A stretch of 62,461 bases of DNA, filler included, from Hausera hauseri (Eukaryota): NCBI GenBank assembly GCA_046269625.1. It is 10 parts of 10 records of this genome, joined end to end, with 100 filler letters (N's around TTAATTAATTAA, not from the genome) between each part and the next. Parts side by side here need not be neighbours in the genome. Positions count along the whole stretch, not along the records: positions 26,700 to 30,690 come from JBJURY010835081.1; 9 more parts are not named here. One strand, 5' to 3'. Made by a program: the position numbers and the translations under genes. The notes beneath the pieces were generated by a model. It had not been told where the DNA came from. It saw only the letters and a program-made list of their open reading frames with translations, and did not search any database. Of this stretch, positions 6,831-52,699 are shown in pieces (within the stretch, counting starts at the first letter, position 1; the number at the start of each line of letters is the position of its first letter).

Positions 6831-7460
6831 AAGGCCTAAGATCCGGGGAGATCCAATAGTATGCAAGTTTATGTATCTGCCACAAATCCAAAACGTTTCC
6901 GGAGCTATACGGGGAGATTTCATCTGTAACAGATCCTAGTACAGGATATCCTCCGTATACACAACTGTAAAAGATCCTAGTATAGGATATTTTTTGGATA
7001 CACATCCGTGAAAGATCCTAGTATAGGATATTTTCCGGATACCCATCTATGATAGATCCTAGTATTGGGTATTTCTGGATACCCATACATAATAAATCTT
7101 GGGAGATCCAAAAGTATGCAAGTTTATGTATCTGCCACAAATCCAAAACGTTTCCGGAGCTATATGGGGAGATCTCATCTGTAACAGATCCTAGTACAGG
7201 ATATCCTCCGTATACACAACTGTGAAAGATCCTAGTATAGGATATTTTTGGATACACATCTGTGATAGATCCTAGTATAGGATATTTTTGGATACACATC
7301 TGTGAAAGATCCTAGGATAGGATATTATGGGATACACATCTGTGATAGATCCTAGTATATGATATTTTTGGATACACATCTGTGATAGATCCTAGGATAT
7401 GATATTTTTGGATACACATCTGTGATAGATCCTAGTATTAGATATTTCTGGATACCCATA
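6831..7460. repeat. 40-bp minisatellite plus a larger internal duplication (probable subterminal repeats)
   Basis: Unit GATAGATCCTAGTATAGGATATTTTTGGATACACATCTGT with period 40. 6845-7010 is repeated at about 7100-7265. Confidence 0.92.
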
Positions 7461-7462
7461 CC

Positions 7463-7463
7463 A

Positions 7464-7490
<27 letters not shown>
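7463..7490. repeat. (TG)n microsatellite
   Basis: Directly visible. Confidence 0.95.
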
Positions 7491-7495
<5 letters not shown>

Positions 7496-9111: not shown

Positions 9112-9760
9112 ATGAAAGGTATGAATTGTAAAAAAAAATTACATCCTTATGTGACACAATCCCATTCATTTATTTACTGTACTTATAATAGTAGTCCTAA
9201 CATTTTCTCTTCCAGGACCAAAAAATGTCTGGATTGTTGGTGACAGCTACATCAGACGGAGTGAATATCATGTAAGGGACACTGTGGGGACCAACCTGGG
9301 TCTTCATGCAGACATAAAATGGTTCGGCAGGGGAGGATTGACCTGGACATCTGTTCTCCCCATTTTACAACAGCGTATTCAGAGTAGCACAGCTCCAGAC
9401 ATACTTGTAATCCACTGTGGTGGAAATGACCTGGGTAGAACGAAAAGTCTGCAGCTTGTCAAATCAATGAAAAAAGATTTGCATTACCTAAAGAAACAGT
9501 TCCCAGAAATGAAGATAATTTGGTCTTCAATCAATCAAAGATGTCACTGGAGGTATGGCCACCCAGCAAAGATAGAAAAAGCAAGAAAGTTTGTCAATAG
9601 GGAAATGAGCCACTTCTGTAAAAATGATATTGTACATCATCCACAAATATTGTTTAACAAGCCTGAGCTGTTTTTGAAGGACAATATACATTTGAGTGAA
9701 AAGGGAAATGATGAATTTTGGAAAGCAATTGCTGAACACCTGAAAAACCATGTTTTCTGA
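9112..9760 (+). CDS. SGNH/GDSL hydrolase; probable join(9112..9118,9216..9760)
   Basis: Blocks intact: VWIVGDSY (I), WFGRGG (II), IHCGGND (III), DNIHL (V). GT..AG intron 9119-9215. AATAAA overlaps the stop codon. Confidence 0.85.
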
Positions 9761-12189: not shown

Positions 12190-15100
12190 CTAAATGCATC
12201 GCAGTGATGGCACTGGAACCACAACATGTACAGTTTCCTCCCTACTTCTTGAAAACCTAACCTTACACTTGGCATACGCACAACGACTAATGATTCTTTT
12301 TAGTGGGAGGTAGGTTGCATAGGAAAAAGGTTCAAAACCCACTTCCCAAACTGAACATGAATCACTATGACTGTAAAAATGTCTATCACCATGTTGTTTA
12401 AACCATTTCACCTCAGCCACAGTATGCTCAGCTTTAACTGTCTTACCATCTCTTTTCAAAAAGATTATGACCTTAAGCATTTTGGAAATCAATGCTGGTC
12501 GAGCAGCAGCTTTCGGATCAATAACAGGTTCGCCTGTTTTCTCATCATTTCTGAGCCACCTTGCGAAAACACATGACTTTGCATCAGCTCTGTAGTCTCC
12601 ACTTGATAGCAATTCCCCTCCTACTGTGCATCTGTCAAACCTAATGGAGTTGAAAGACACTCTGTGTACACAGTCGTTTTTGTACAAAGTCTTAAACATT
12701 GAAAGGAGAGCGTCACTTTCTTCATACGAAATATGTCTTCGGTGTAAAGGTGGAAGCAGATTCTCCAAAGTCTCATCAAATCGGAAGTCATGCGGAACAT
12801 CACTGTCTGACATAATTTTAAGTCTATTAATCTGTTCCATTGTAAGTTTGTAGCTGCATTTTGATGCTTTCTTTTTAGAGAATTGTAAATGCTCTTCAAC
12901 CTGTTTTGGTAAAGATTTCGATTTACGAAATACCTGCCAGCCTAGCAACCATTTACGCATCATAATGACTTCTGCATGTCGGTTATTAGTATGGTAGTCA
13001 CCTAAAATCCCATTACACCTTTCAAAAGAAAAGCACCAAAATGAATGAACTGGACCATAGTCTAAGATGCACGAATGTAGGTGTAAATGCAGGTGTAAGT
13101 TCATGGTACACCACTCTTTTCCATATTTGTCTTCAAATAAATCACAGAAAATTTGAAGACACCTATGCGCATCATCCAGCTGACTTGTTGTTACAATCCG
13201 GGTACAAAGTGTCCTTGCAGCAGAGACAAAAGATGTCCAGATATTATAATCTGCTTCAGGCAAAAGACCTTTCAAGGCATACAAAGAGTAAGTGCATACC
13301 CAAATCTTCCACTGGGCTGCTGTAAATCCTTCAAACGCAGACTCGATTTTTCCAGGAATTCCAGGATCAAGGTCACTCGGGACTTTTAAGGAATCCACTC
13401 GTGACTGCAAAATTAGGAAGGACTGCCTATTCAGTATACCTTTTTCTTTCCACACTTGCATTACTCTTTTGGCTGTGCCCTCCAAGATATTATGCATGGG
13501 GTCAATAACATGCATTCTAACTGGGTCAAAATAAGGCAAGTCGTGAAGAACACTATACCTGGCACCATAAATTCCTTCTAATCTTGCTTGATCTGCCTTT
13601 GATTTGGCTCTTTTTGCTTTCCTGGCATACAAAATGTGATTTTCTTTTGACCTGGGGAGCCACTGATCACACCGGAAACCTGAGTAGTCGACCTTGTTAT
13701 CAGTGGTTCTTGGAAATTGTTTTAAACATTTAGAACATCCCATTTTAGCCATGTGCCCTAGAAAACCTCCAGTCTTGCGAGATGCTGGAATATCACTTGA
13801 CAAACACAGTAGAGCAGCTCTGTATTGTTGCCTTCCTAAACCCGTAGAGTCTAACAAGTAAACCCCCTTCCACAGGTCATGAAGGTCATCAACAAGTGGT
13901 TTCATGTAGGAATTAATATGCCCTTTGGGTTCATGTGGTCCAGGAATTATTCCTGCGATTATAATATTCTCCTCCTTAAATCGCTCCTCACGAGGAAGAT
14001 TCATTACAACTAGATACATAACACCTACAGAATCTTTAACTTTATCATAGGGCTGAAACCAGTCAACATTAAGCATGAGACCCAGATTACATGCTTCAGA
14101 AAGAAATGGCTTTCCATCATAAGCTTGAAAATCTTTCCAAATCTGTCCATCAAACACATCAGCAATAACATTGTCGCACATTTCACGTTCTCTCCACTTT
14201 TCACAGGCTTGATTAAAACCTGGTCTCTGTGCTAAATCCTGCAAGCTCTTTGTTATGTTTCTATAGCAAAAGCTACGTTTGGGATATAAATAGGGTAACC
14301 CTTTTTTCCCAATGGCTGTTTTCAAAAGCACAGTCCCACATTCCTTACGATGCCGCTTTTGTGCATGTTTTTTAAAACTTACATGACTACATCTTGCTGA
14401 TTTTTTTCTTATGCTGTGTCCATCCTTTACAATTATGGTTGCCTCCTCAAGTGTATATACTGTGTCACAAACTGGGCATGCCACATAGTGAATGAAGTCA
14501 TCTTTTTGGAGTGAAAGCATTTTCCTGATATTATACATGGTTGAGGGAATTTTTTCAGCCAAATGTCTCAATGTATCAATCTTTAAAATGCTGCCAACCA
14601 CAAAAAGAAATGACTTAACCAGATTTAACAGTGCGATGTAAGCATTGTCTGAAATTGTAAACTGGGACTTCCACATTGTAAGTTGAAGGATAAAATATGT
14701 CAACCATGAGTACTGAACATCATCAACATTGCTGTTATCATTCCTCTCTTCATCTGCTTTGTCTTCATGTGTGCCTTCAAATGCAATGTCTTCTCCACTC
14801 CATTCCATGTCCTCATCTTCATTGCTGCCTCCAGTGTCTTCTTCAACTCCAACATATTCTTCATCGCTATTGTCACTTTCCTCTTCACGGCATCTGGTGT
14901 TCCTATTTTCTTCAACTCCAACATATTCTTCATCGGTATTGTCATGTTCCTCATCATGGCATCTGGTGTTCCTTGTGCTGCATTCGCTGCTGCTGCTAGC
15001 ACCTGGAATCACATTTCAATCACAGTTCAATCATCTGTCAAAACAAACCAACAATGACATCAATCTTATACAGAACTTAAAAGAACAAACATTTTCCTCA

Positions 15101-21780: not shown

Positions 21781-22610
21781 GGAAACGACGGATTCATTTG
21801 TAATGACGTCGACATTTTTGTAATTTCGTCATTTGGTCATTTTGTCAGTCCCACCCATGAACTGATTGTATGTCTTCACCACCGCTGGACAGTCAACTGG
21901 TATACGTTTGTGCTGCTTGGCATCATAACGTAACTCTGTTGTATCGGGATCTAATATGTACTTTGTTGAGAGAAAGTAGATCGGCCGTTTGTCGCACCTT
22001 ATGAGAGCTGTAGTTTTACCGTTGTACATAACTCGGTGTGATCCACGTTGCATTTTCTGCTTGGTGGAGATCTTTTGGAAACCGTTTTCTATTTGTCAAG
22101 GCCGTTCCGCACATGTATGTGTTCTGCTGTTGAAGATGTTCAGCAACGTTCACTGAAGTGTAAAAGCGGTCTGTGAAGACACAGTGATGTCGGCCCTCAA
22201 ACGTTTGTAGTAGGCGGTAAACCAAATTTCCTGTAACACCAAGTCCTGCATGTTGGTCTGTTTGTACTTTACCAGTGTAGATTTCCGCATTCACAATGTA
22301 GCCTGTTTTGCTTTCACACAAAAGAAACGCCTTGAGTCCCCATTTGATTGGCTTGTCCTTGATGTATTGTTTGATACTAATCGCATTTTTGGTGGGAATC
22401 ATTCCTTCATCAAGTGACAGCTCGCAGTCAGGCATGTAGAATTCTTGAAAGTTTACGAGGATGTGATTGAAGATTGGTCGGCTTTTGTAGATCTGATTTA
22501 TCAAGATCTGGATCCTGTTCATCAGCACAGTGCAGCATCGACTAGATGGCAAGAAAGCAATCACAAGTGATGACTTTAGTAAATCCGGATGTAGCTGTCA
22601 ACGAACTATC
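21781..22610 (-). mobile_element. piggyBac (PGBD4-like) transposase remnant
   Basis: LSLDEGMIP, KQYIKDKPIKWGLK, EIYTGK, VFTDRFYTSV and YNQFMGGTD cover the DDD triad; frameshifted. Confidence 0.92.
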
Positions 22611-22624
22611 CTTCTTTTTCCCCA

Positions 22625-23842
22625 CTTAGGCCCCACTTGATGCGATACACATATGCCAACGAGTAATCCAATCATCGAAACACTTGTTATATGCACTTTG
22701 CAGTATGGCCTTCAGCTCCTTCTGTGAATTATGTTTAATGGCTTCAATGGTCTGAAAACGTCTTCTGCGAAGTGGTTATTTGTTTGAAGAGGAAAAATTC
22801 ACACGGGGCCGTATCTCGTGAATACGGTGTTTGGTCGATGACATTTGTTGAGTTTTTGGCCCAAAACTCCTGTATAAGGATTGGTGTGTGAGATGGCGTA
22901 TGGTCCTGGTGAAAAATCCAAGAATTGTTTACCCACAAATCTGGCCTTTTACGGCGAACATTCTCTCAAACGCTTCATAACACCCAAGTAATGTTTGTTG
23001 ACTGTTTGCTTCTCTGGAAGGAATTACGAGTGGACAACACCACGACAGTCAAAGAAAACAGTCAACAGGACTTTGATTTTTGAACGACTTTGACGTGTTT
23101 TTTTTTTCGGTTTTGGATCGTTATTGAAGCGCCATTCCGAAGATTGTTGGCTGGTTTGCGTGTCAAACTCGTAAACCCACGTCTAGTCACCCGTTATGAT
23201 GTGTTTTATGAATGTAGTGTCCGAATTGACTCGTTCAAGCATGTCTTCAGCAACCTGTTTCCGGTACTCTTTTTGAAGAAAATTCAGCTACTTCTGAACA
23301 AGCCGTGCTGCAACGCGTCTAATACCCAAAACATCAACCAAAACAGTGCAAAGGGATTCATGAGATATGTCTACATCCTGAGTCATCTCTCTTAAGCTTC
23401 CATGACGATTTTCCATCACCACTTGCTTCACTTTGTTGATGTTTTCATCAGTTGAAGATGTTGAAGGTCGACTAGAACGAGGCAAGTCTTCAATCACTTG
23501 TCGGCCTTCTTTGAATGCTTTGTACCACTCGTATGATCGTGTTTTCGATAAAGCTGACTTACCATAAGCCTTCAACATTTTCCATGATTCAACACAAGAT
23601 ATTTCATTGGCAACACACAATTTGAGGCAAACTCTTTGTTCGATATTTTTATGCATTCTAAAAATAGCAAAACAAACTTTAGGTCAACTAACAAAACAAA
23701 CACTTTAAACAAACTACTTCACAAATAGTGACGAAACTGTATGTGACAATCAGGTACCAACTTAACAGCAAAAATTTTCTTTCATAACTTTTACACGGGC
23801 TTTTTAAATAAACAAATCCCAGTATTTATTTGACAGAATGTA
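22625..23842 (-). mobile_element. Mariner transposon remnant with 5' TIR
   Basis: EQRVCLKLC..YEWYKAFKEGR..DLPRSSRPST, WIFHQDH, PYSRDTAPCEFFLF and CFDDWITRWHMCI. TA + CATTCTGTCAAATAAATACTGGGA TIR-like end at 23842; 3' TIR absent. Confidence 0.9.
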
Positions 23843-26699: not shown

Positions 26700-27102
26700 T
26701 GAGTTTAAATTGAAACTCATGACGATATTACACTTGTGAAAGCAGTTTAACTGAAATATAGGAAATATTATATTTAATAAATCTCGTGTACGTGCTAATT
26801 CTGAATACGATTTTATCAATACAAGTCCAATAAATCTGTTTAGATTAGTGATTTCGAACTCGTTTCCCACTTAAACCGATATGAAACAGAAAAATATTTT
26901 AAGATTGAGCCGACAATTCAAAGTAATTAAAAAATATGATGTCTTATAAAAGTTCGACAGAAAAAACAATTTTTCGAAATTCGTCTATTGGTTTCTTCAA
27001 ATGCACACAAAGTGATTTTCAAAATTATTCTGCATTTATAGCAGGCCCATAGTGCTGCTTCTGGTTCTCTGATTAAAATGATTAGTAATTTCCAAATAAT
27101 AT

Positions 27103-27977
27103 TGTTATATTTTGGGGTGGCCCTTATACAACTCCCACTATATAACAATAAGTACACTTGAGATTTGAGTACCTTAATGCAGGTAAGGTTTACCGTTATC
27201 GAATAGACAGATTGTGCCTTATAACAATTAGTTTAATAAGTAATGCTGGTACTCATTAGCGGTTCTGTGCAAAAATGTTTAACAAAATTCTTCTCTTAAC
27301 TATGTAATTTTACAGTAGAATTTTAGACCTTAGTGTAGTCAAATCATCCTTAAAGGGCAATGAAAAACTATATAAGATTTTTAAAATAACAAATATATTT
27401 TACAGCAAAAATAATTACGCAGCTCCTGAATACAACTCCGGTATCGGATTCAAATCAACTGGTTAAGGAATCAATCCATAGCAATAATAACTTCAACGAA
27501 TTAGTGCTCCTTTCAGTTTCTGAATATTTTGTCTTCTCAACGATTCAACAGTTCTGCAACAATAGTTCAGCTTCTTGATAATTCTCAATTTAGCTTCTTA
27601 ACTTCTGTAAGGAAGTTTAAATAAACTCCAAATAGCTTCAAATAAAAACTCAAAAATTTCGTGTCTGCTACTCGCTTATATACTAATACAACTGCGTATG
27701 TGACTGATTTCATTTCATATTCTTGGAATTATAAACAGCCTTTAGCTGAATTTTTCAGTATTATCCGATTTGAAAATTAATATAAATTCAACGCGTTTTC
27801 CAAAAATTCTAAAAAATGTACCAATTTATTGCTAAATTCCATCTTTATATTTGTACAAATTCCTAAGTTTGTATAATAATGGAAAATATCACAAAATAAT
27901 AAATATTTGCAATATGCTGCTTATAATAGTATTTATAATTTTTGGACGTCTTCGCAATATTGGACGTCTTTACAACA
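27103..27977 (-). repeat. Probable 3' LTR of the contig-4 element
   Basis: On the minus strand a short purine tract AAGGAGAAA is followed by TGTTG..., a TATATAAG box near 27675-27682, and ...TAACA at 27103. The distal end is tentative. Confidence 0.5.
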
Positions 27978-30536
27978 TTTCTCCTTGAGCGGCATCCTCG
28001 GATGTGCCCATTGCGTCAGGAGAGATGACGCCATAACGTGGTTGTCTTAGGAGATTTATTCGTCTACGTAAGCTCACTTCTGAGTCCGTATTTGGCTGAG
28101 TTTCTCGGGAATTTGTTTCCAATTCATAACTGTAATGGGGTTTTATTCGAACTACACGGGTATAAGTACCGTTCGAAAAGTATTTCAGTTCCGTTGCTTC
28201 GGTTCTACACACCGGGCAGGTGGTTTTGCCATTATCTAGGGTCTATTTTTCCAAGCAATCTCGGCAATATTTGTGTCTACAATCCCGATTATGCAAAACA
28301 ACGTATCTTTGACTGAGATTCGCTTCACATATTTGGCATTCGCCTTCCTCTTTATCCCATTTCTCGTCATCTAAATCTACTTTTATTTTGAACTTTATGG
28401 GTTCGAATATGAGACCATCTTTATCTTGATATAGGTAACCATGGATTCTATTTTGTTTGGTGTTTACAGAACTCTTTCTAGGGTCACAACCTATTGGTAC
28501 TAAGATCCAATCGGCGATGGTACCTCGATCTAAATAGGAATTTCGCCATCCGTTTGATACTTTTGATACTGTTTTTTCAACAAAGCTTTCATTTGTTTGT
28601 CTACTGACACTGTTAACTTGCCGTTTCTTTTCGATATGAAAACTGGCGCAATATACCTTCCTATTTTAGGATTTTCCGAAATGTAGGTGTTTTCGTATAC
28701 TTCTCGAGCTGGTGTGGTCTTCATGAAAATCATTGCTTCTTTAATTTTCTGGTGACTATAATACTCGGTAGATATTAGCATCTTCGGGTAATCCTTAGTT
28801 GTTGCGAAGTGTACATCTTCTTGGGAATTCCTTTTTCTTAGGATATTTACTTCCGGGAACAGTTGTTGAAATCCGCTCTCTAGGTTCTTGTGCTTGTATG
28901 TTTTTCTTTTGGGTTTTTCTGAGATTGTCATTTGGTCATTTGCGGACATCGCTGCGATTTCTCTTGCTATCTCTGAAATTTCGGGTTCTTCGTTTGTTTT
29001 ATCGGTTTGATCTTCTTGAGCTTGGTTTGAACTTGTTCCTTTATTTTTCTGTCTGAACAAGTAACCATAGAAGGATAATTTTCTTTTGATCGGGGAAATT
29101 TGTGTTCCAGCTTTTTGCTTTTGCGGTGGAATCTTGGGCACTTTGAATGTCTAGATTTCTTCTATTTTTTGATTGTAGATTTCATTTCTGGAATTGGTTT
29201 GACATTGGAACTATAACTGGTTCTTAACACATTGGTGCACGATTGATCTGATTTTTGAATAGTTATTTTGATATTATCCTGTCCCATGGGTTTCACGACT
29301 CTACACGGGGAATACGAACGATACTGCTTCCGACAATTTTTATTCATAGTTTCCAGGTCGGATGTACTTCGTAAATTTTGTTCTGAATTACTGGGTGTCC
29401 ACTCATGGTCCTATTTTAAAGCTACGTAAATGTCGCGCAAGTAGTGAGTGCGTTGACTTGCGGTTAACAGTTTGCTAATCTTAACATGTTCGCTGTTCGT
29501 GGCGTCAACCATTAATTTGAAATAGGCATCCATAACTTTTGGCTAAGATAATTCCTTTCCCGTAATATTTGTTTACTTTGTTCGGTGACTTTTGGGCGCG
29601 TCCTTATTTCATGAATTCCTACGATGCTTGACATGGGTATTTCTAAGAGTTCGACAATGCTATCGATGCAATATCCAGTTATAATATATACATATAAACA
29701 ATGTTCTAACTCGGCCTGAACAAGTTTGATATCTCTACCTCTCGAGAGTGTTTCCTTACGAATTCCTGTCGTATTATAGGATGTTTCGCTAGCACGTTTT
29801 CTCAGTCTGATAATCGTACAATATACTTCTGTTCCGTTGGTTTCTCGAACTGAGACTTCCACTGGGATCCTCTGTGAGCCATCTCCTTCTCCAAAATTGA
29901 TTGCTATGATTCTGGTATTTCTGGCATCTTTTCCTAGTCTACACGATTGTAAGAAGGTGTCCAAATCCTTTTCTGATATAGAGGTAATCATCGTGCGTTA
30001 CCTCGAACATTAATTTTGCAGGAAGGGCCGTTACTCTGAATTCTAATTCATAATGCTGTAAATTTTCGCTACGTAAGCTGAGAGTACTGAATCTGTATTG
30101 TTTTCCGTTGTTTGTGTTCCATTCTTGGTCTTTGAACCGGTAGTATATTTCACCATCTGCCAGGTGGATATAAATAATTTGTCAGTTCCTGTACGTGATC
30201 ATCTATTTAAGTGAATATGCTCGGGCATCTTTGTCTTCTCTGATGGCGTAAAGGTAAACAATCCTATTTTCTTACGTTATACCCTTTAAATTGTTAGGAA
30301 TTTTACTCGTCTGATCATACTTCACAAAGGTTTTCTCGTGTAATTTCTTATGCATTTCTCTATATATTGATTTCGAATTTGGGAGAAAGACTAGCGTAAT
30401 TCTGCAAGAACTCGTCAATACTAAGTAGGCGTTTTGGTGATTTATCGATTCCACATAGTTCTCGTTCTTGGATAGATCGTGGTCCGTCGATGCAAGGTCG
30501 TCCGGTATCCGTTTTCGTATTTCTCTCTTTACTCAT
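27970..30536 (-). pseudogene. Retroelement accessory gene (about 850 codons, disrupted): shared N-terminal domain + DEDDh-fold pseudo-exonuclease + low-complexity linker + C3HC4 RING finger
   Basis: ORF-track pieces join through stops and frameshifts. IPNNLKG is shared with 33728..35035. IIAINFG..IPVEVSV..GTEVYCTII..TTGI exonuclease-like core at about 29415-29915. CQIC-x15-CRHKYCRDC-x12-CPVCR at 28204-28338. Confidence 0.75.
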
Positions 30537-30690
30537 CAGTCTAAAAAATAAACAGTAAGGGTTAATCCTGCAACGAAGGATGGTTTTAAAATAAAAGCAA
30601 TTCTTCGTTAGATGATAGAATAACCCGCTCTGTAGTTGTCAGGTTATTTCATCATACGCATAAATAGGGGTTTCCAATTTCCTTAGTTCC

Positions 30691-30790: not shown

Positions 30791-33631
30791 CCAGGAACAC
30801 GCAATGCGAATGCAGATTATTTATCAAGAATGCCTGACATACCCAAGCCAAAAGAAGTGGTTGCGGCGGTATGGAGTATGGATGGATCCGTAGAGAAAAT
30901 AAAACAGAACCAACAAGAAGACATGGAAATAAAGGCAATTAGAAATTATATACAGAACAAAGTATTACCGTTAAATCGAGAATTAGCTAGACATTTGGCT
31001 CGATTTAGTGATGCCTACGAAGAAAAAGATGGATTTTTATACTACATCCATCAGAATGGACCAACCTTAGTAATCCCAGAAAAGAACAGAACAGTGTTAT
31101 TGACGCAATACCATGACGGACTATTAGGTGGTCATCAGTCAGCAAGAAAAACGATAGCCAAATTAAAAAGGAAATATTTTTGGCCCACGTTAATAAAGGA
31201 CGTACAAGAATGGTGCGATAGCTGCAAACTATGCGCTACGCGCAAGAATGCCGGATCGAAGTTCAAAGCTCCCCTTAAAGTATGGGATAATCCGCCAGCT
31301 CCATTCGAGTTTACAGCTATGGACATAACAGGTCCCTTACCATTAACACGAAATGGAAATAAATACATTCTAGTTTTTATAGACTATTTCACTCGATGGG
31401 TAGTAGCGTTACCAATGGCTGATATGAAAGCTGATACAATAGCTGAAAAATTCGTGGAGAATATAGTGTTCAATTATGGAGCTCCAAGAATCTTATTAAC
31501 AGATCAAGCATCTAATCTTACGGGTAACGTAATGCAGGCGATATATGATATTATGCGAATTCTAAAGTTACGCTCAACACCAGGACATCCAGAAAACAAC
31601 GGGATGGTAGAAAGATATATCGGTGATCTAAAAAGCAAATTACAAACGGTTGTTAGCTCTCGACAGGACGATTGGGATGAATACATCAACGCCTGCGTAT
31701 TTGTAAATCGAACATCAGTGCATGAGGCCACTAAGGAAACACCATTTTATTTGATGTACTTAAGAGATGCTCGACTACCTATTGATTTAGATTTTAACGT
31801 CAAGCCCACATCTCATTTAATGGAGATAGAAGAGTATAAATTATTAATGCAGGAGCGCCTTCAACTAGCTTACAAAATAGTGAAAGATAATCAAAAGGAT
31901 TATAAAGCCACGTATAAAAAGTATTATGACGAAAAAACAAAACAACCTAAGATTAAAGTCGGAGATAAGATGATGCTGCATGTGCCTCTGAGTAAAAAGG
32001 GAAAGACATCCAAATTGGATAGACCGTATAAAGGCCCATATGAAGTAGAGAAAGTGGATCTACCGAATCTCTGCCTAAAGAAGAACAATACTATATTCAA
32101 AGTTCATGTGAATAGATGCAAGCCCGCAGCCAAGGAAAGTAAGCTTAGACAAGACGAACAAGATATAGTAAGAAGTATCAAAGATAAATCGACTATAGAC
32201 CATAGATCCTATGAACCAAGAAAACATTTCTTGTGGTTAATATTAATGTTACTGCCACAAGTGTTGAGCCAATTAACTAAGCAAGAAATTGAGCAAGCCA
32301 AAATACGACATGCAATAGCTATAAATGAAGATTTAATGCTAAAAAGTTTGAGGTATCATATGACGTACACTATGAAAGGCCAAAAATGTGCAATCTGGCA
32401 TACTACAAGACAAATGACCAGTGACTATATGATAGGAATACAAATGATCCCTCGGAGTGACTATGAAAGGGATCCTAATGAACGACAGTACGACTGTATA
32501 CTTCACCCAACCGTGAACGAGACACAATGCTCATTAGAAACTTCCGGGACTCATGCGGTATACCTTACGCTTATAAAGAGAAGAGGGGATTACTATCGCA
32601 GTCTATATACTAAATTCAGTAAATATATTAAAATTCCCCATCGATCTGAAATGAACGAGACCTTATTAGACGAAATTATACTTAAACAATTAAGAATAAG
32701 ATCAAAGGGATTCAAAAGTGGACGTAGTTGCATTGAGGTCATGAGTATAATAGAACTGGAATATATTCGATGGATAACGATATCAATAAAGGCAGTAGAT
32801 AGCAAGCAAAAGTCAAAATGTGAAATTACGTACGAACAGCAGCATGTATGCTGTAACGTAATAAGAGGTAAAATATATAACGTAAATTATACGTTATCAC
32901 GAAAAGAATACGGAAAATTCAAAGGAAAAATACGAATAAAAGGGCCAACCATGTATATTAGGTACAAAAACAAGGTAGAGTACGATGAAAAGGTTGGAAA
33001 TGTCACAAAACCGTCTAGGGTTATGGAGCCACCCGTACACGCTCCGTCGAATAGTGAACGGAGAGACATGACTATATTAATTAAACCATATACATCATAT
33101 TACCGACAAAAGCGCTCAATATGGGAAAACGTTACAGTTACGACTACCCCAACAGCCCTGATAATGTCAATAAAACCCGACCTTGATTTTGCGAAAGTAA
33201 GATTTGTTTGTAAATTAAAAGACATAATAGTAGCAAAGGGATACATAACCCCTGATGATCTAGTAGTACCCTGCGCAGCACTCAGACCTAATACCCAATA
33301 CACCGTTATACTTCAATTAGTTGATGATAATAATAAAGTAACATCAACCAAAATACTAACAGCTATTACTCGAAAAGAAATAAAAACCCTAGAGTTACAT
33401 AAGAAAGGTGTTATTAAGTATGTCACCACTCAAAGGCCGACAAGAGCCGTGTATAAGTATTCCCGAATAGAATTAATAATAGCAGGTGTTTGTACCCCCA
33501 TAGTATCGATGATATTAGTTTTAATAATAATAAAAGTAATATCGTACGTACGACGACGTCGCAAACAATCATGGATCCGAATAGACTTGCGACGTATCAC
33601 GAATACCTTGGAAATCGATAATCCAAGCTGA
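30791..33631 (+). CDS. pol: Ty3/Gypsy Pol C-terminal part (RNase H tail, integrase) fused in frame to an env-position membrane protein; 5' truncated
   Basis: Frame open from the contig edge: PGTRNANADYLSR; HHCC (YHD..GGH..CKLC); D-D-E (AMDITGP, LTDQA, NGMVER); GPY motif (YKGPYEV). About 470 further aa contain HFLWLILMLLPQVLSQ, RQKR, LRPNTQYTV, a TM helix and RRRRK. Confidence 0.93.
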   Translation, partial: PGTRNANADYLSRMPDIPKPKEVVAAVWSMDGSVEKIKQNQQEDMEIKAIRNYIQNKVLPLNRELARHLARFSDAYEEKDGFLYYIHQNGPTLVIPEKNRTVLLTQYHDGLLGGHQSARKTIAKLKRKYFWPTLIKDVQEWCDSCKLCATRKNAGSKFKAPLKVWDNPPAPFEFTAMDITGPLPLTRNGNKYILVFIDYFTRWVVALPMADMKADTIAEKFVENIVFNYGAPRILLTDQASNLTGNVMQAIYDIMRILKLRSTPGHPENNGMVERYIGDLKSKLQTVVSSRQDDWDEYINACVFVNRTSVHEATKETPFYLMYLRDARLPIDLDFNVKPTSHLMEIEEYKLLMQERLQLAYKIVKDNQKDYKATYKKYYDEKTKQPKIKVGDKMMLHVPLSKKGKTSKLDRPYKGPYEVEKVDLPNLCLKKNNTIFKVHVNRCKPAAKESKLRQDEQDIVRSIKDKSTIDHRSYEPRKHFLWLILMLLPQVLSQLTKQEIEQAKIRHAIAINEDLMLKSLRYHMTYTMKGQKCAIWHTTRQMTSDYMIGIQMIPRSDYERDPNERQYDCILHPTVNETQCSLETSGTHAVYLTLIKRRGDYYRSLYTKFSKYIKIPHRSEMNETLLDEIILKQLRIRSKGFKSGRSCIEVMSIIELEYIRWITISIKAVDSKQKSKCEITYEQQHVCCNVIRGKIYNVNYTLSRKEYGKFKGKIRIKGPTMYIRYKNKVEYDEKVGNVTKPSRVMEPPVHAPSNSERRDMTILIKPYTSYYRQKRSIWENVTVTTTPTALIMSIKPDLDFAKVRFVCKLKDIIVAKGYITPDDLVVPCAALRPNTQYTVILQLVDDNNKVTSTKILTAITRKEIKTLELHKKGVIKYVTTQRPTRAVYKYSRIELIIAGVCTPIVSMILVLIIIKVISYVRRRRKQSWIRIDLRRITNTLEIDNPS

Positions 33632-33727
33632 CGGTGGATAACAAGGATTGTAATCTACGCAATCCACTTATGTCAGATAGCTGAACGTCGTATAGCTACC
33701 CCTTTTATATTTAATAATAAAACTACA

Positions 33728-35035
33728 ATGATTACCGATTTTAAATTGATAACCGTTGTATTATTGTTAAGCTTTTTAAACCTCCCATTGACTAATTTCG
33801 TTACAGATATGCTGGACATACAATCAATTCAAAGAAGCAAAAACTGGTATGAGAATGCCAAGACACACCTCATCAACGCCAACCCAACTAATCCATACCA
33901 TGTTATCCTCAATGAATCAACGTTTAGTCTAAACTATCCTAAATTACAACAGATCCCCAACAATCTAAAGGGATACTCATGCCACAATCGGTCACTCGCC
34001 TTAATACAAATGACCAAAGCTACATCGTTTTTCATATCGGAAATAATAACACTCCCTGAAAAGTATTTTGCTATTACCATTTTCGATATCGTTGGAAAAT
34101 TTCAAATTAAGACCAAAAATATCAAAACATCCCAACAAGGAGATCTTATTAACTTGGACCCCAATAACGGTGTAACGATTGATATCAAATTTATAACAAA
34201 AAATACTTTGAAAATTCGGTCATTGACAAATCGTATAATGTTCGGTATCGAAATCTTACGACCAGAACCCTTCTGGACGACTCCTGAACATGGAAAGTGT
34301 TTCAATTTAACCGAACCTGATTATGCGAAGTACACCGAAATTCCATACCGACGTATCCCGGAAATAACTAATGATGATATTGTGATAGCAGCCGTGAACC
34401 TCGCGTATGATCAGGACAACCAACTAACACCTATTGAATGTTCTGTCCTAGACATACATGGAAATTCAGTATTCTACACAATCATAACGCCACGAAAAAG
34501 AATCAACAATTACGACACCCACATTACCGGCTTGACCGAAGCTCAAACGAACAACCAGATGGATGAGAACACTTTCTTCCAGAAAATATCAATGCTCCTC
34601 AATGATAAAATGATAGTTGGAGCCGCAGTTTTGGAAATGCTGACCAAATACCTGAAATGTCCATTACGCCGAATTTTAGGTATTCGTGATATTCTATATC
34701 ACGACGAAGTAGCTCAAAAATATAAAATGGACAGACCCAATTATAAAGAATTGGCCAAACGTTTTTACAATATGAGAGCCATGCCGTTACGTAGTACGGC
34801 ATTGGCACAGTGCTATCAAGCCATTTATCGTACGTTACGATTTGATGACGAACTCATTACCGAAGCCACGGCCTCCGACAGGGTCTTAAAAAGACCACCA
34901 GAAGTAACAACACGAAAGAGAAAAATTGTGATTGAAGAAGAGGTGCTAATTGATGGAGAAATATATACTCCCGATGGACTTCGTTACAGGTCACAATCCG
35001 GTAAAACGATATTCCGAGCGTTGCCAAACCAATAA
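33728..35035 (+). CDS. Retrotransposon accessory ORF with DEDDh (REX4/ISG20-like) exonuclease fold lacking catalytic acids; likely start 33809 after a splice acceptor
   Basis: IECSVLDIHGNSVFYTIITPRKRINNYDTHITGLT...ISMLLNDKMIVG...IRDI...YKELAKRF follows the REX-family pattern. The ORF is intact and lies between pol and the LTR. Confidence 0.78.
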   Translation: MITDFKLITVVLLLSFLNLPLTNFVTDMLDIQSIQRSKNWYENAKTHLINANPTNPYHVILNESTFSLNYPKLQQIPNNLKGYSCHNRSLALIQMTKATSFFISEIITLPEKYFAITIFDIVGKFQIKTKNIKTSQQGDLINLDPNNGVTIDIKFITKNTLKIRSLTNRIMFGIEILRPEPFWTTPEHGKCFNLTEPDYAKYTEIPYRRIPEITNDDIVIAAVNLAYDQDNQLTPIECSVLDIHGNSVFYTIITPRKRINNYDTHITGLTEAQTNNQMDENTFFQKISMLLNDKMIVGAAVLEMLTKYLKCPLRRILGIRDILYHDEVAQKYKMDRPNYKELAKRFYNMRAMPLRSTALAQCYQAIYRTLRFDDELITEATASDRVLKRPPEVTTRKRKIVIEEEVLIDGEIYTPDGLRYRSQSGKTIFRALPNQ

Positions 35036-42435: not shown

Positions 42436-42889
42436 TCAAACTAACGTCAGGATGCACAATCAATTCTGGTTAAATCGTAAAAGTACCAGTGAGAAATCTG
42501 TTCATTCTCTAAAGACAAGAAATCGACATGATGAAGAAAATTCCAAGAGTTACGTGAATAATTGCAACGAAAAGCCTAACAGGACTTTTACCGTATCTTC
42601 AGAACTTCGATCTTCGTTTTCTAAAGCAAATTCGTTTGATTTAGATTTCTTACCGAAGAAAGCAAACATTTCCGAAAGGATTGGATAATTGTAATCATCA
42701 TGATGGGTAAAAAGGTCTGATTTCATTGAAAATGATTTTCTCCAAATCGTTGAACATATCGTCGACAAGAATGAGACGTTCTAATGATGTCCAAGATCGT
42801 AAAACCGGCGATGTTGCTAGCCACTTGTCTGTGAAAAGTGACGAAGACGATCGAGATTGGCATTATTCATTGCACCCCATGAACAGTAA

Positions 42890-44100
42890 CAAAGCGGAAA
42901 TTACACCGAAGGATATCGCAAACAATGGCAACACATGTTATATCAATTTCATCACCCAAATATTTTGTTCTCGATGAATTCGTTCATGATAGGAAATCTT
43001 CGAAGAATTCAGACACTATGAATTTGATGTTAACGAAATTCTTTATGTTTCTCAAAAGTCTCTGGTTGTTACAACTCGACTGTAATTCGTTGTCCAATGA
43101 TTTCAGTTTGGAATTGTTAAATACCGAATGCAGTTTTCAAAGAAATGATCAGCGGGACGCCCAAGAGTGTCTGTTGTTTCTACTCAACCATTGCCACGAA
43201 CCTTTGAAAGTCGGTGTCGTTTTGGAACCGAAGAAAGTCAAGAAACCGAGAAAGAATATTCTCTATTTCGAAGCACAGAAAATCGTCAACCAGAACAAAT
43301 CCCGAATTCATTCGATTTTCGCCACACATTAACAGTTGGTTATTGTCTATTCGATTTGTCGCACTCGACAGAAGAAATTGGAACCGAATCTTTGCCTTAT
43401 TCTTCCAGTTCCGGCTAAAACAATGGAGTTGTTGTATTGTTTTGTTGAAAAGAGCGGATCACAAATATTCAGAGCGATGTGATAAACACTGTCAGCCCTG
43501 CACAGTTTGTTCGTGAAAATATCGCTCACATATTTAGAATTAACGTCAATGACACCATGATCATGGTCGTCAATGAATCAGCATTCGGGAAATGTTCTCA
43601 CAAATCTGACACGTCTATCGAATTGCTGTGCGGGAAACAGTCCACTACAAGCAACATATAGAATGGTGTAGTCGCCCTTAAGACATTATACGTAAACAAT
43701 AATTCATTTCGTCAAGAAACCGATCCAGACTGATCAGTGCGCATCAGATGAAAAATAGCAATTTTCCATTGAGTAGAATTACTTTCGATAACACCAATGA
43801 CATACGACATCGAACTGGACATTATAATAATTTGTCTTTAAATGAGGAAAAGTGCACATATACTTCATTTGACGGTATGAAAACACTGTTGTCAGTCGAC
43901 TAATGCACCTGTTAATAAAAATCAGTCAAAGACCGACGACGAATCATCCGAAAGTCAACTAAAGCTCGTCGTTATTCACGTTGAAGTACTTGTCGATGTG
44001 CTAAAACTTACAGATCGCGAATATCTCGGCATTAAAGCTTGCACACTCAGAACTCTAACGGCCATAATTCATTACAGTAAACCTACGTTTTGCTGGTCTG
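42890..44100 (+). pseudogene. Ubiquitin-specific protease (peptidase C19) pseudogene
   Basis: Cys box IANNGNTCYIN, then QRDAQECLLFLLNHCHE in another frame, and degenerate LVVIHV and LTAIIHYS downstream. Multiple frameshifts. Confidence 0.75.
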
Positions 44101-49849: not shown

Positions 49850-51180
49850 CATATTAATCACCATACGCCCAATATATTACCTTCTTAGTCCATATGGTAC
49901 TCATAATTATCCATATAATTCTCATAAAATCCTTCTATATTCCCTCAATATTCCATATAATCCATCCATATTTCCTCAATATTCCATATAATCCTTCTAT
50001 TTTCCCTCAGTATTCCTTACATATTCCTTATTATCTTCATACATTCCCTATCTAGTCCTTATAATATTTGTATATTCCCCAACTAGTATTCATTATCTCG
50101 GTATATTTCCTCTATATATTCCATATAATCCTAATATATTCCTTCATATTCCATATATATTCCATTCATATTCCTCAATATTTCTTTCAATCCTTTTATA
50201 TTCCATATAATTACTATATATTCCCTATAATCCTTCGATATTCTCTCAGTATTCCATATAATCCTTCTATATTCCCTCAGTATTCCTTATCATCTTGGTA
50301 TATTTCCTTATAGATTCCTTATTATCTTCATACATTCCCTATCTAGTCCCTGTTATCTTGGTATATTTCCTTATAGATTCCTTATTATCTTCATACATTC
50401 CCTATCTAATCCTTATAATATTTGTATATTCCTCAACTAGTACTCATTATCTCAGTATATTACCTCAATATTTCATATAATCCTCATATATTCCATCCAT
50501 TTGCCTTATAATCCTGATATATTCCTGCTCATGTACCCCGTGTTTTGTCTATATTTTACATGTAATTTTACCTACCATATCCAATATAACTTATGTAAGC
50601 CATATATTACCTGATTATCACCCATATATCACATGTTTTGTCTCTGTTCTCCATAATTATTCACCATATCCCCAATATATTACACATATTCCCTATGTTC
50701 CTTATATATTCCCTATATATTTTCTCATATAATGCCTATAATATACTTGTATTAGCTGCAGTTTACCTGTATTTTACATATATCACCCATATAACTTGTA
50801 TATCACATGCATTTATTTCCCCATAATTTACCTGTATTACCCCACATGTTACCTCAGTCACCTAGATATTACCTCCATTTCACCCATATTACTTGCATAT
50901 TATATACAAGTATTATCTGGATATTACCTGATTTTTCGTTACTTCCCAACTAATCCTTATCATCTTGTTATATTCCCTAACAAGTCCTTATTATCTTGGC
51001 ATATTCCATCTCATATTCCTCAGTATTCCTTATTATTCCTCATATATGCCCTCTTAATTCCTCATCATCTTGGTATATTCCATCTCATATATTCCCTATA
51101 CTCCAGATATATTCTCTAATCCTGAATAATACTGATATATTGATTCCATATTATCTTGGTATATTCCCTCTCATATTGTT
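49850..51180. repeat. Low-complexity G-poor degenerate repeat (ATATTCC/TAATCC-type)
   Basis: Extreme strand bias with internal near-exact duplications, e.g. 50292-50350 and 50355-50410. Confidence 0.85.
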
Positions 51181-51479: not shown

Positions 51480-52620
51480 TTTCGAATAATGCACATTTTA
51501 TCGATTTTTTCGAATTCGAATCGATAATTATTCGATTTAGAATAATTTATTCGAATATATGACATTATATTTAGATTGTCAATGTATGCTTTTTTATCCA
51601 TGTACGCTTAAAAATTTCTTGATTTCTGTATGTTTCACCTTCAAATTCACCTTTTAAAATAAATCAATTAGTTAAAACAAAAATATTACATAATATTACA
51701 TCATTTATTTAACAGCCTTGATTAAATATACAATTATGCACTGCACGACTTTATTTCGATTTCCTTTTAGGTTTTCGCATATGAGGAATCAAATGCCGTC
51801 ATTAGATTATTGGAATAATGTATTCTTGATCGATATTTCGAGTTCGAATCGATAATTATTCGAGTTAGAATAATTTATTCGAATATCTGACATCAGATTC
51901 GGATTCTCCATATTTGCTTTCCTATACATGTACGCTTAAAGATTTCTTGATTTCAATGTGCTTCACCTTAAAAATCACCTCAATTGGTTAATCAATATAA
52001 GAATTACTTTGCATTTATTAAGAACTTTTTTACATGTTGGAATTTGCATGTTTTTTATACACTGCACCGCACTTGTGTTGATTGCCATATAGGTTTTCGA
52101 CCATGAGGAATCGAATGCCATCGTTTGATTCGTCAAATAATGCTTGCTTCATCGATTTTTCGAGTTTGAATCGATATTTTCTCGAGTTTTAAGCTCGATG
52201 TCAAATATTTAACATCATATTCCTAATCTCAATATACATGTTCCTATCTGCTGTGCTTAAAGATTTATTGACTTCAATATGCTTTAGCTTCAAATTCACA
52301 TTATTTTGTTTAATCAAGAATTACTTTGTATTTATTATGCACTTTTAACATGTTGGAAATTGTTTTGTTTTTTATACAGTGAGGTGCACTGTACCTTACT
52401 TGTTTTGATTGCCGTATAGGCTTTCGACCATGCTGAATCGATTGGCATCATCTGATTCTTCGAATAATGCTTGCTTCATCGATTTTTCGAGTTCGAATAG
52501 CTAATTATTCAAGTTCGAATATTATTTCCGATCATCTAACAAAATATTTCGATTCCACATACACGACTTTATATCCCGCCCCGCTATTACATTTATCGAT
52601 TTCCTATTCAGTGAACTTTA
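51480..52620. repeat. Tandem array of about 325-330-bp units (about 3.5 copies)
   Basis: AATAATG..TCGAT.TTTCGA.TT.GAAT recurs at about 51485, 51814, 52136 and 52463, with collinear downstream sequence. Confidence 0.85.
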
Positions 52621-52699
52621 AATTCACATTTTGCTTAATTCGAAATATTGATTATATATAGTAGGGGAAAAAAGAGAGTTCTAGCTCAGGGGGAAGGAG

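Follow-up and report, generated by a model that had tools for sequence, protein, structure and literature searches.

A decayed gene next to an LTR in Hausera hauseri and its intact relative point to a retroelement fusion of beta-helix, dead DEDDh nuclease and RING-HC domains

A canonical RING-HC domain lies at the end of a decayed accessory gene in Hausera hauseri, in a window (the whole stretch of DNA that was analysed) of 62,461 nucleotides. As an intact relative, P0002, shows, intact members of this lineage encode a beta-helix domain, a dead DEDDh domain, a linker and a RING-HC domain as one protein. The best reading, to which we give about an even chance, is a putative nucleic-acid-guided ubiquitin ligase of a Ty3/gypsy-type element. 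The window consists of ten contigs joined by artificial spacers and has a GC content of 35%. The RING is on contig 4 (26700-30690). A relative without a RING is on contig 5 (30791-38244), a separate piece, so the integrase found there has no physical linkage to the RING. Feature coordinates are collected in Table 1.

Table 1. Features of the accessory gene, its LTR and the contig-5 relative (positions in the window)
Feature	Position	Strand	Basis
Whole decayed accessory gene, about 855 codons	27970..30536	-	five collinear tblastn pieces against P0002, 31-47% identity
Splice-acceptor-like site, 4 nt before start codon (inferred)	30541..30557	-	family ORF comparison
N-terminal double-stranded beta-helix domain (AlkB/cupin-like)	29984..30391	-	45% identity to P0002 68-206
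ISG20/REX4-like DEDDh pseudo-exonuclease	29400..29967 (lower limit approximate)	-	44% identity to P0002 227-366
Middle region, fold unmatched	28560..28853	-	36% identity to P0002 573-679; common only to P0002
RING-HC (C3HC4) domain, stop-interrupted in this copy	28204..28338	-	translation, Pfam, P0002 alignment
Internal stop codon, specific to this copy	28243..28245	-	other contigs' letter at 28244; P0002 open there
Polypurine tract, inside last codons of ORF	27978..27986	-	P0002 ends in the same four residues
3' LTR, 875 bp, TG...CA, 6/7 terminal bases inverted	27103..27977	-	sequence and contig loose ends
Contig-5 Ty3/gypsy integrase, in frame into signal-ectodomain-TM protein	30791..33631	+	PF00665, PF17921, hydrophobicity
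Contig-5 relative: beta-helix and pseudo-DEDDh ORF, without RING	33632..35035, likely start 33809	+	profile and alignment

An earlier note on this DNA had recognized the RING as canonical with one stop. Its translation was reproduced exactly, and all eight zinc ligands are present (C28338, C28329, C28281, H28275, C28266, C28257, C28218 and C28209). Their spacing, C-x2-C-x15-C-x-H-x2-C-x2-C-x12-C-x2-C, is that of canonical RING-HC domains and is the same in P0002. With X at the stop, the domain passes the Pfam cut-offs for PF00097, the zf-C3HC4 profile that the note had proposed as a check (27.3 bits, cut-off 21), PF13920 (30.2 bits, cut-off 27) and PF13639 (29.9 bits, cut-off 27.3). A loose RING pattern that allows no more than one stop occurs in 0 of 200 local shuffles of the stretch; the real stretch has two matches, this domain and a stop-riddled one at 14637-14837.

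The note had also proposed that reading through one TAG gives a canonical RING. The stop in the RING is real and copy-specific: at 28244, its middle base, 58 contigs of a public sequencing run, with 4164.4 of 4234.3 summed depth, carry another letter. It is not the sole lesion. The gene, whose two proposed ends both hold (ATG at 30536, TAA at 27972-27970), contains about seven internal stops (3+2+1+1 by segment) and five frame breaks (near 30391, 29967-29984, 29542-29551, 29150-29170 and 28534-28559), so it is dead far upstream of the RING. This copy is a pseudogene and cannot make the fusion protein. Upstream of the RING its frame contains no Met, so the RING could not stand alone.

The lesions of this copy are its own. 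Four of the five frame breaks coincide with length differences in contigs of other copies, of sizes that explain the frame changes; no indel among the best 12 of 32 falls at the fifth (28534-28559). Among the best-supported 40 substitutions (the tool's selection from a set with 782 more, not a random sample), 27 fall inside the ORF, and at nearly all of these it is the other contigs that differ from this copy. Codon positions 1-2 hold 24 of the 27 and position 3 holds three (binomial p 0.008); in the last segment, all eight listed substitutions are at positions 1-2 (p 0.04). Such a pattern is expected if the other copies are conserved as protein.

The RING gene almost certainly belongs to an LTR element, the retroelement setting that the note had given it. 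A polypurine tract and a TG...CA LTR stand directly behind the RING frame, and the accessory ORF runs over the tract into the LTR start. On contig 4, 4599 contigs of the public run align at a likeness of at least 80% and cover 28 of 30 bins. Run contigs end at the LTR limit (64 loose ends at 27103, agreement 0.4), and 26700-26967 is bare. Two run contigs span the RING and both flanks (28012-28460 and 28149-28469). This shows that many divergent copies include the RING; contig depth is not a copy number. The run was the one matched in the public-run look-up, carries 0.27 of the sampled words and may not be independent of the source of the stretch; the look-up listed no RNA run carrying those words. 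Contig 4 ends with only the 3' LTR present and no pol, and the link to a gypsy pol is therefore by homology only. At its other end (30586-30690), contig cover is far higher than elsewhere in the internal region, and loose ends lie at 30590 and 30656; this piece is perhaps shared with other element families.

P0002 was the best new match among 135 proteins found in 1.84 billion with a query profile made of the contig-5 ORF, P0001 and the contig-4 nuclease piece. It is a natural, intact protein of 870 amino acids, encoded on one ENA contig of 16,242 bp. Contig 4 matches it in five collinear pieces (45, 44, 31, 36 and 47% identity), it has a PF00097 match at 747-790 (30.8 bits), and its last four residues are those of the window frame. 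Since the pieces line up along P0002 in their original sequence and the RING is among them, the fusion stands without a consensus of copies, the route by which the note had meant to establish one continuous ORF. We regard it as virtually certain that the nuclease-to-RING gene is a single ORF. The pseudo-nuclease and RING that the note had joined are one ORF in P0002, with the catalytic positions lost; the P0002 RING has the same position and frame with its ligands kept.

The fusion is known from one intact protein, P0002, and from this copy family. A word-based search with the contig-5 ORF gave one match (P0001) among 7363 candidates. Similar searches with the middle piece and with the RING piece, both limited to longer proteins, gave none, and these are weak since both missed P0002. 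The RING piece was found in 0 of 80 candidate metagenome contigs, and locus searches of viral contigs gave 0 of 102, 0 of 34 and 0 of 5.

An AlphaFold2 model of P0002 (47-row alignment) is confident only for about residues 55-420. The RING half, which lacks alignment depth, has a pLDDT below 50. The beta-helix domain in front of the nuclease was absent from the earlier note. In the model, residues 50-206 resemble Ofd2 (Z 10.0, rmsd 3.7, 137 aligned), ALKBH6 (Z 9.5) and a cupin (Z 8.3), and this modeled fold match does not separate AlkB from cupins. The HxD...H motif is the metal triad of AlkB and other 2OG-Fe(II) oxygenases. The domain here conserves a single His (in 38 of 47 rows) and a single Glu (in 39 of 47) and lacks a conserved triad, so it is unlikely to be a 2OG oxygenase. 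Over residues 243-417 the model aligns with human ISG20 (Z 17.4, rmsd 2.3, 158 aligned; Foldseek E 7e-8). The catalytic D, E, D/E, H and D are all lost (0/5) in P0002, the contig-5 ORF and P0001, and none of the three positions covered by the contig-4 nuclease piece is kept. The middle region of P0002 (560-745, pLDDT below 50) has no match among the proteins or loci compared.

Together the beta-helix and DEDDh domains mark out a family of about 47 proteins. An iterated search with the N-terminal domain as profile found 53 of 138 sequences, 47 of them at E < 1e-6, with one duplicate dropped. In the set of 48 rows (the 47 and the contig-4 piece), several members are truncated, and P0137 belongs to the same cluster as P0011. 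All five DEDDh positions are present in 21 rows and none in 23; four rows are partial. P0003 is, with contig 4, P0002, contig 5 and P0001, among those that keep none. A quick family tree with long branches (46 rows; P0136, P0137 and weaker matches left out, and P0033 scored as intact though truncated) requires at least three changes between intact and dead states, and the lineages of contig 4 and contig 5 are not sisters in it. The RING is, as the note had suggested, a variable module: it was found in one of 135 matches by pattern and one of 50 in the Pfam scan, and is confined there to P0002 and this copy. P0003, the nearest to P0002, ends inside the nuclease domain and is therefore uninformative on the RING. 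Most family members do without a RING, which is therefore dispensable for transposition. Four proteins of 733-804 amino acids (P0005, P0017, P0064 and P0092) have three or four nuclease-profile matches and no N-terminal domain.

The contig-5 relative is distant from the contig-4 lineage (26% identity over 114 residues). No RING pattern was found in it in any frame, in agreement with the note. The integrase frame before it continues into a putative signal-ectodomain-TM tail (32210-33631, plus strand) that has no Pfam match and is at most a candidate fusion protein. One TGA (33629-33631, plus strand) stands between the pol frame and the accessory ORF, which share a frame. A metagenome scan with a narrower family alignment gave eight loci from 394 candidates; all come from one JGI set and are thus not independent samples. 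In two of these, L001 and L003, the family ORF follows stretches of 3012 and 3207 residues with a Monjiviricetes fusion domain (PF24664), proteases, reverse transcriptase, RNase H, integrase and a terminal membrane protein. The order protease, reverse transcriptase, RNase H, integrase therein precedes the family ORFs, and contig 5 has the integrase (41-45% identity to those of L001 and L003). The order integrase, membrane protein, accessory ORF is common to all three. The membrane-protein tail of contig 5 is alike in layout to those of L001 and L003, with no sequence similarity found between them. The polyproteins (L001:2-9037 and L003:1-9621) exceed 3000 amino acids, have two or three protease matches and a Burro-like layout; L003 has an extra signal-ectodomain-TM insert between proteases.

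Other loci carry neighboring genes of a different kind. L004 encodes a RING-H2, an IAP-like RING, a TRAF and a coiled-coil protein in separate ORFs upstream of a nuclease ORF with an intact site, and L006 has a TRAF ORF upstream of its nuclease ORF. In these cassettes (L004:303-6730 and L006:640-4655) the TRAF protein is RING, zf-TRAF and MATH, and the DEDDh ORF has an intact site. Their likely place is the 3' cargo region of a large gypsy element; L004 and L006 themselves showed neither pol nor LTR. In L007 (1344-6782), a gag (Retrotrans_gag and CCHC) in the same orientation lies about 2 kb downstream of the nuclease ORF. Such an arrangement would be expected across an LTR junction; LTR limits were not found.

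The family ORFs may be reached by splicing. We defined an acceptor-like site as a YAG at most 4 nt from the ATG with at least 60% pyrimidine. Of the 10 family ORFs examined, 8 have such a site ahead of the start codon (four of these belong to a single subfamily, and the start codons were chosen by eye), compared with 93 of 1135 background ATGs. This suggests that the accessory gene is expressed from a spliced sub-genomic RNA. On contig 5, an acceptor-like site before ATG 33809 likewise suggests splicing rather than read-through.

The RING is the best-conserved part of the gene: 29 of 45 residues (64%, hand count on the alignment) are identical to P0002, against 31-47% for the pieces. RING E3 ligases bind their E2 through a hydrophobic residue in loop 1, an aromatic residue in the helix, a Pro in loop 2 and an Arg after the last Cys, and the P0002 RING keeps all of these. 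In intact members we consider the RING a likely active E3. Among solved structures it is best matched by the generic cellular RINGs RNF4 and TRIM5. An origin from the RING-H2 of L004 is unsupported, as the match to it (17.1 bits) is no closer than that to TRIM5 (27.9 bits). Atlas searches gave leads all below 0.9, to RNase_T clusters and generic RING clusters (several viral), from which no RING donor can be read.

We predict the following course for an intact element. The accessory gene would be read from a spliced sub-genomic RNA. The beta-helix and dead DEDDh domains would bind RNA or single-stranded DNA without cutting it; we rate nucleic-acid binding by this putative module as somewhat better than an even chance, and dead DEDD domains that still bind RNA are known in Maelstrom and EXD1 (PMC5408684). 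The RING would recruit a ubiquitin-loaded E2, and proteins on or near the bound nucleic acid would be ubiquitinated. The substrates would most plausibly be host RNA-surveillance or restriction factors that engage the element's RNA or cDNA; host defence proteins as candidate substrate are put forward only tentatively, a little short of even. In favor of selection on the RING count its standing as the best-conserved part and the bias to codon positions 1-2, and the RING and TRAF genes of L004 and the TRAF gene of L006 suggest an interest of the lineage in ubiquitin. A wider reading, which we think rather unlikely as a whole, is that an undescribed beta-helix and DEDDh family, carried by a lineage of large invertebrate Ty3/gypsy elements, lost its nuclease site repeatedly and that one branch became an RNA-guided E3 that removes host RNA-surveillance or piRNA-pathway proteins from element RNA. 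It would be an anti-silencing device and a mirror of host PML.

The fusion could instead be an E3 directed at signaling (apoptosis, innate immunity or the survival of stem cells), in the manner of the TRAF, IAP-like and BCL2 cargo that Burro-type elements carry. In that case the dead nuclease would be a protein-interaction scaffold, and the fusion would merely merge two neighboring accessory ORFs. Such ORFs do exist: immediately before the nuclease ORF lies a TRAF ORF in L004 and L006, and in L004 an IAP-like RING ORF as well. The part of the Burro review available to us notes domains that occur as accessory ORFs or subdomains, many linked to apoptosis or ubiquitination (PMC6431247). The fusion protein itself points away from it: a Pfam scan of P0002 found no MATH, BIR or TRAF zinc finger, its RING resembles the L004 RING-H2 no more than it does TRIM5, and the RING follows the nuclease here whereas the L004 RING genes precede it. 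We hold a signaling role to be rather unlikely. Many RINGs dimerise or auto-ubiquitinate, and this one might be structural or self-regulatory, acting in dimerisation or the protein's own turnover with no host targets. The lack of a substrate-binding domain of known type in Pfam would fit. We find this quite unlikely, given that the canonical E2-activating residues are kept in P0002 and that substrates could be bound by the conserved region of 170 residues that precedes the RING.

The remaining alternative takes the RING for a neutral passenger, picked up at the element's 3' end and retained without function, or for a gene of its own with no relation to the nuclease ORF. It was found in one of 47 family proteins, and this copy is dead. 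P0002 largely refutes both versions, with its RING in the same position and frame, all ligands kept, and 64% identity where the rest has about 45%. The RING has no start codon of its own, and the last-segment substitutions, all eight of those listed at codon positions 1-2, also argue against a passenger, which we judge highly improbable. We return to the nucleic-acid-guided ligase as the best reading.

RING and TRAF cargo in giant gypsy-like elements is already published. According to the part of the Burro paper available (PMC6431247), Burro carries RING-type, MATH/TRAF, BIR, IAP-related, coiled-coil and BCL2 cargo and a mononegavirus-like env in frame before the protease. Like Burro and GYPSM1 of planarians as described there, the relatives L001 and L003 have PF24664 before protease, reverse transcriptase, RNase H and integrase, and L004 and L006 have TRAF, with RING ORFs in L004 as well (PMC6431247). 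The exonuclease and beta-helix domain are not among the Burro domains listed in that part (PMC6431247). Further differences are the LTR of 875 bp here and a RING element without pol on its own contig. Burro elements are above 30 kb in total and have BIR, BCL2, ankyrin and dUTPase domains; the Pfam lists for the covered parts of L001 and L003 include none of these. The Burro env is between gag and pol; in L001 and L003 the fusion domain is before the protease, and gag would lie beyond the covered part; contigs 4 and 5 do not include this region.

The bdelloid LTR elements Juno and Vesta have an intact RNase D-like DEDDy exonuclease as ORF3 (PMC5408684). The family here is alike in having a DnaQ-like 3'-5' exonuclease gene behind pol, separate and probably spliced (PMC5408684). 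It differs in being DEDDh (with the His in intact members), nearest ISG20 and often dead, and in having an N-terminal beta-helix domain and, in this lineage, a RING. The known accessory domains given in the available part of PMC6338049 include a DnaQ-like exonuclease, and no RING occurs there; the available part of PMC13524379 has no exonuclease, RING or Burro. In orchid Ty3/gypsy elements an AlkB ORF is an active m6A demethylase, according to the part of the report available (PMC9289625). The beta-helix fold here is likewise extra cargo of a large gypsy element (PMC9289625, same part). Unlike the orchid AlkB, it does not conserve the HxD...H triad and is fused to a DEDDh domain.

PML combines a RING with an active or dead DEDDh domain in one protein, as the available part of PMC10123124 describes. 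The fusion here is like amniote PML-I in having a RING and a dead DEDDh fold, in a family with active and dead forms (PMC10123124, same part). Unlike it, PML is a host TRIM with an N-terminal RING-B-box-coiled coil and restricts L1 (PMC10123124, same part). Here the domain order is reversed and the gene is owned by the element; the likeness is an analogy. Herpesvirus ICP0 and other viral RING E3s are RING-HC proteins encoded by a genomic parasite. As compared with ICP0, the best PDB matches here are the cellular RNF4 and TRIM5, and no counterpart of the ICP0 targets or motifs was found. Each part of the fusion is thus known as retroelement cargo, and the combination and the family appear undescribed. 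No account of the beta-helix and DEDDh family or of the RING fusion was found in the literature covered; Repbase and Grohme 2018 with supplements lie outside it and may hold one.

To our knowledge, few animal retrotransposons are known to encode counter-defence proteins. The cargo of Burro has been proposed to interfere with host ubiquitination, with experimental confirmation awaited in the part of that paper available (PMC6431247). P0002 is a compact, natural and intact protein for a direct test of cargo that meddles with ubiquitination. The family pairs active-site and dead-site members, with and without RING, and so offers a switch from enzyme to adaptor within a transposon. This copy, a pseudogene, matters only as a pointer.

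The window has several other features. An open frame of 941 amino acids (12190-15015, minus strand) matches Transposase_21 (CACTA-like), and a piggyBac-like fragment (22016-22597, minus strand) matches DDE_Tnp_1_7. An HTH fragment (23288-23683, minus strand) is presumably mariner-like. Together with the GC content, these CACTA-like, piggyBac-like and mariner-like pieces point to an invertebrate genome. A GDSL/SGNH lipase-like ORF (9155-9760, plus strand; PF13472) is of a known retroelement cargo type. Contig 7 has a fragment of a ubiquitin C-terminal hydrolase (UCH; 42883-43332, plus strand). Tandem arrays are present at 6841-7491, 49909-51176 and 51508-52629, with periods of about 40, 31 and 325 bp, respectively.
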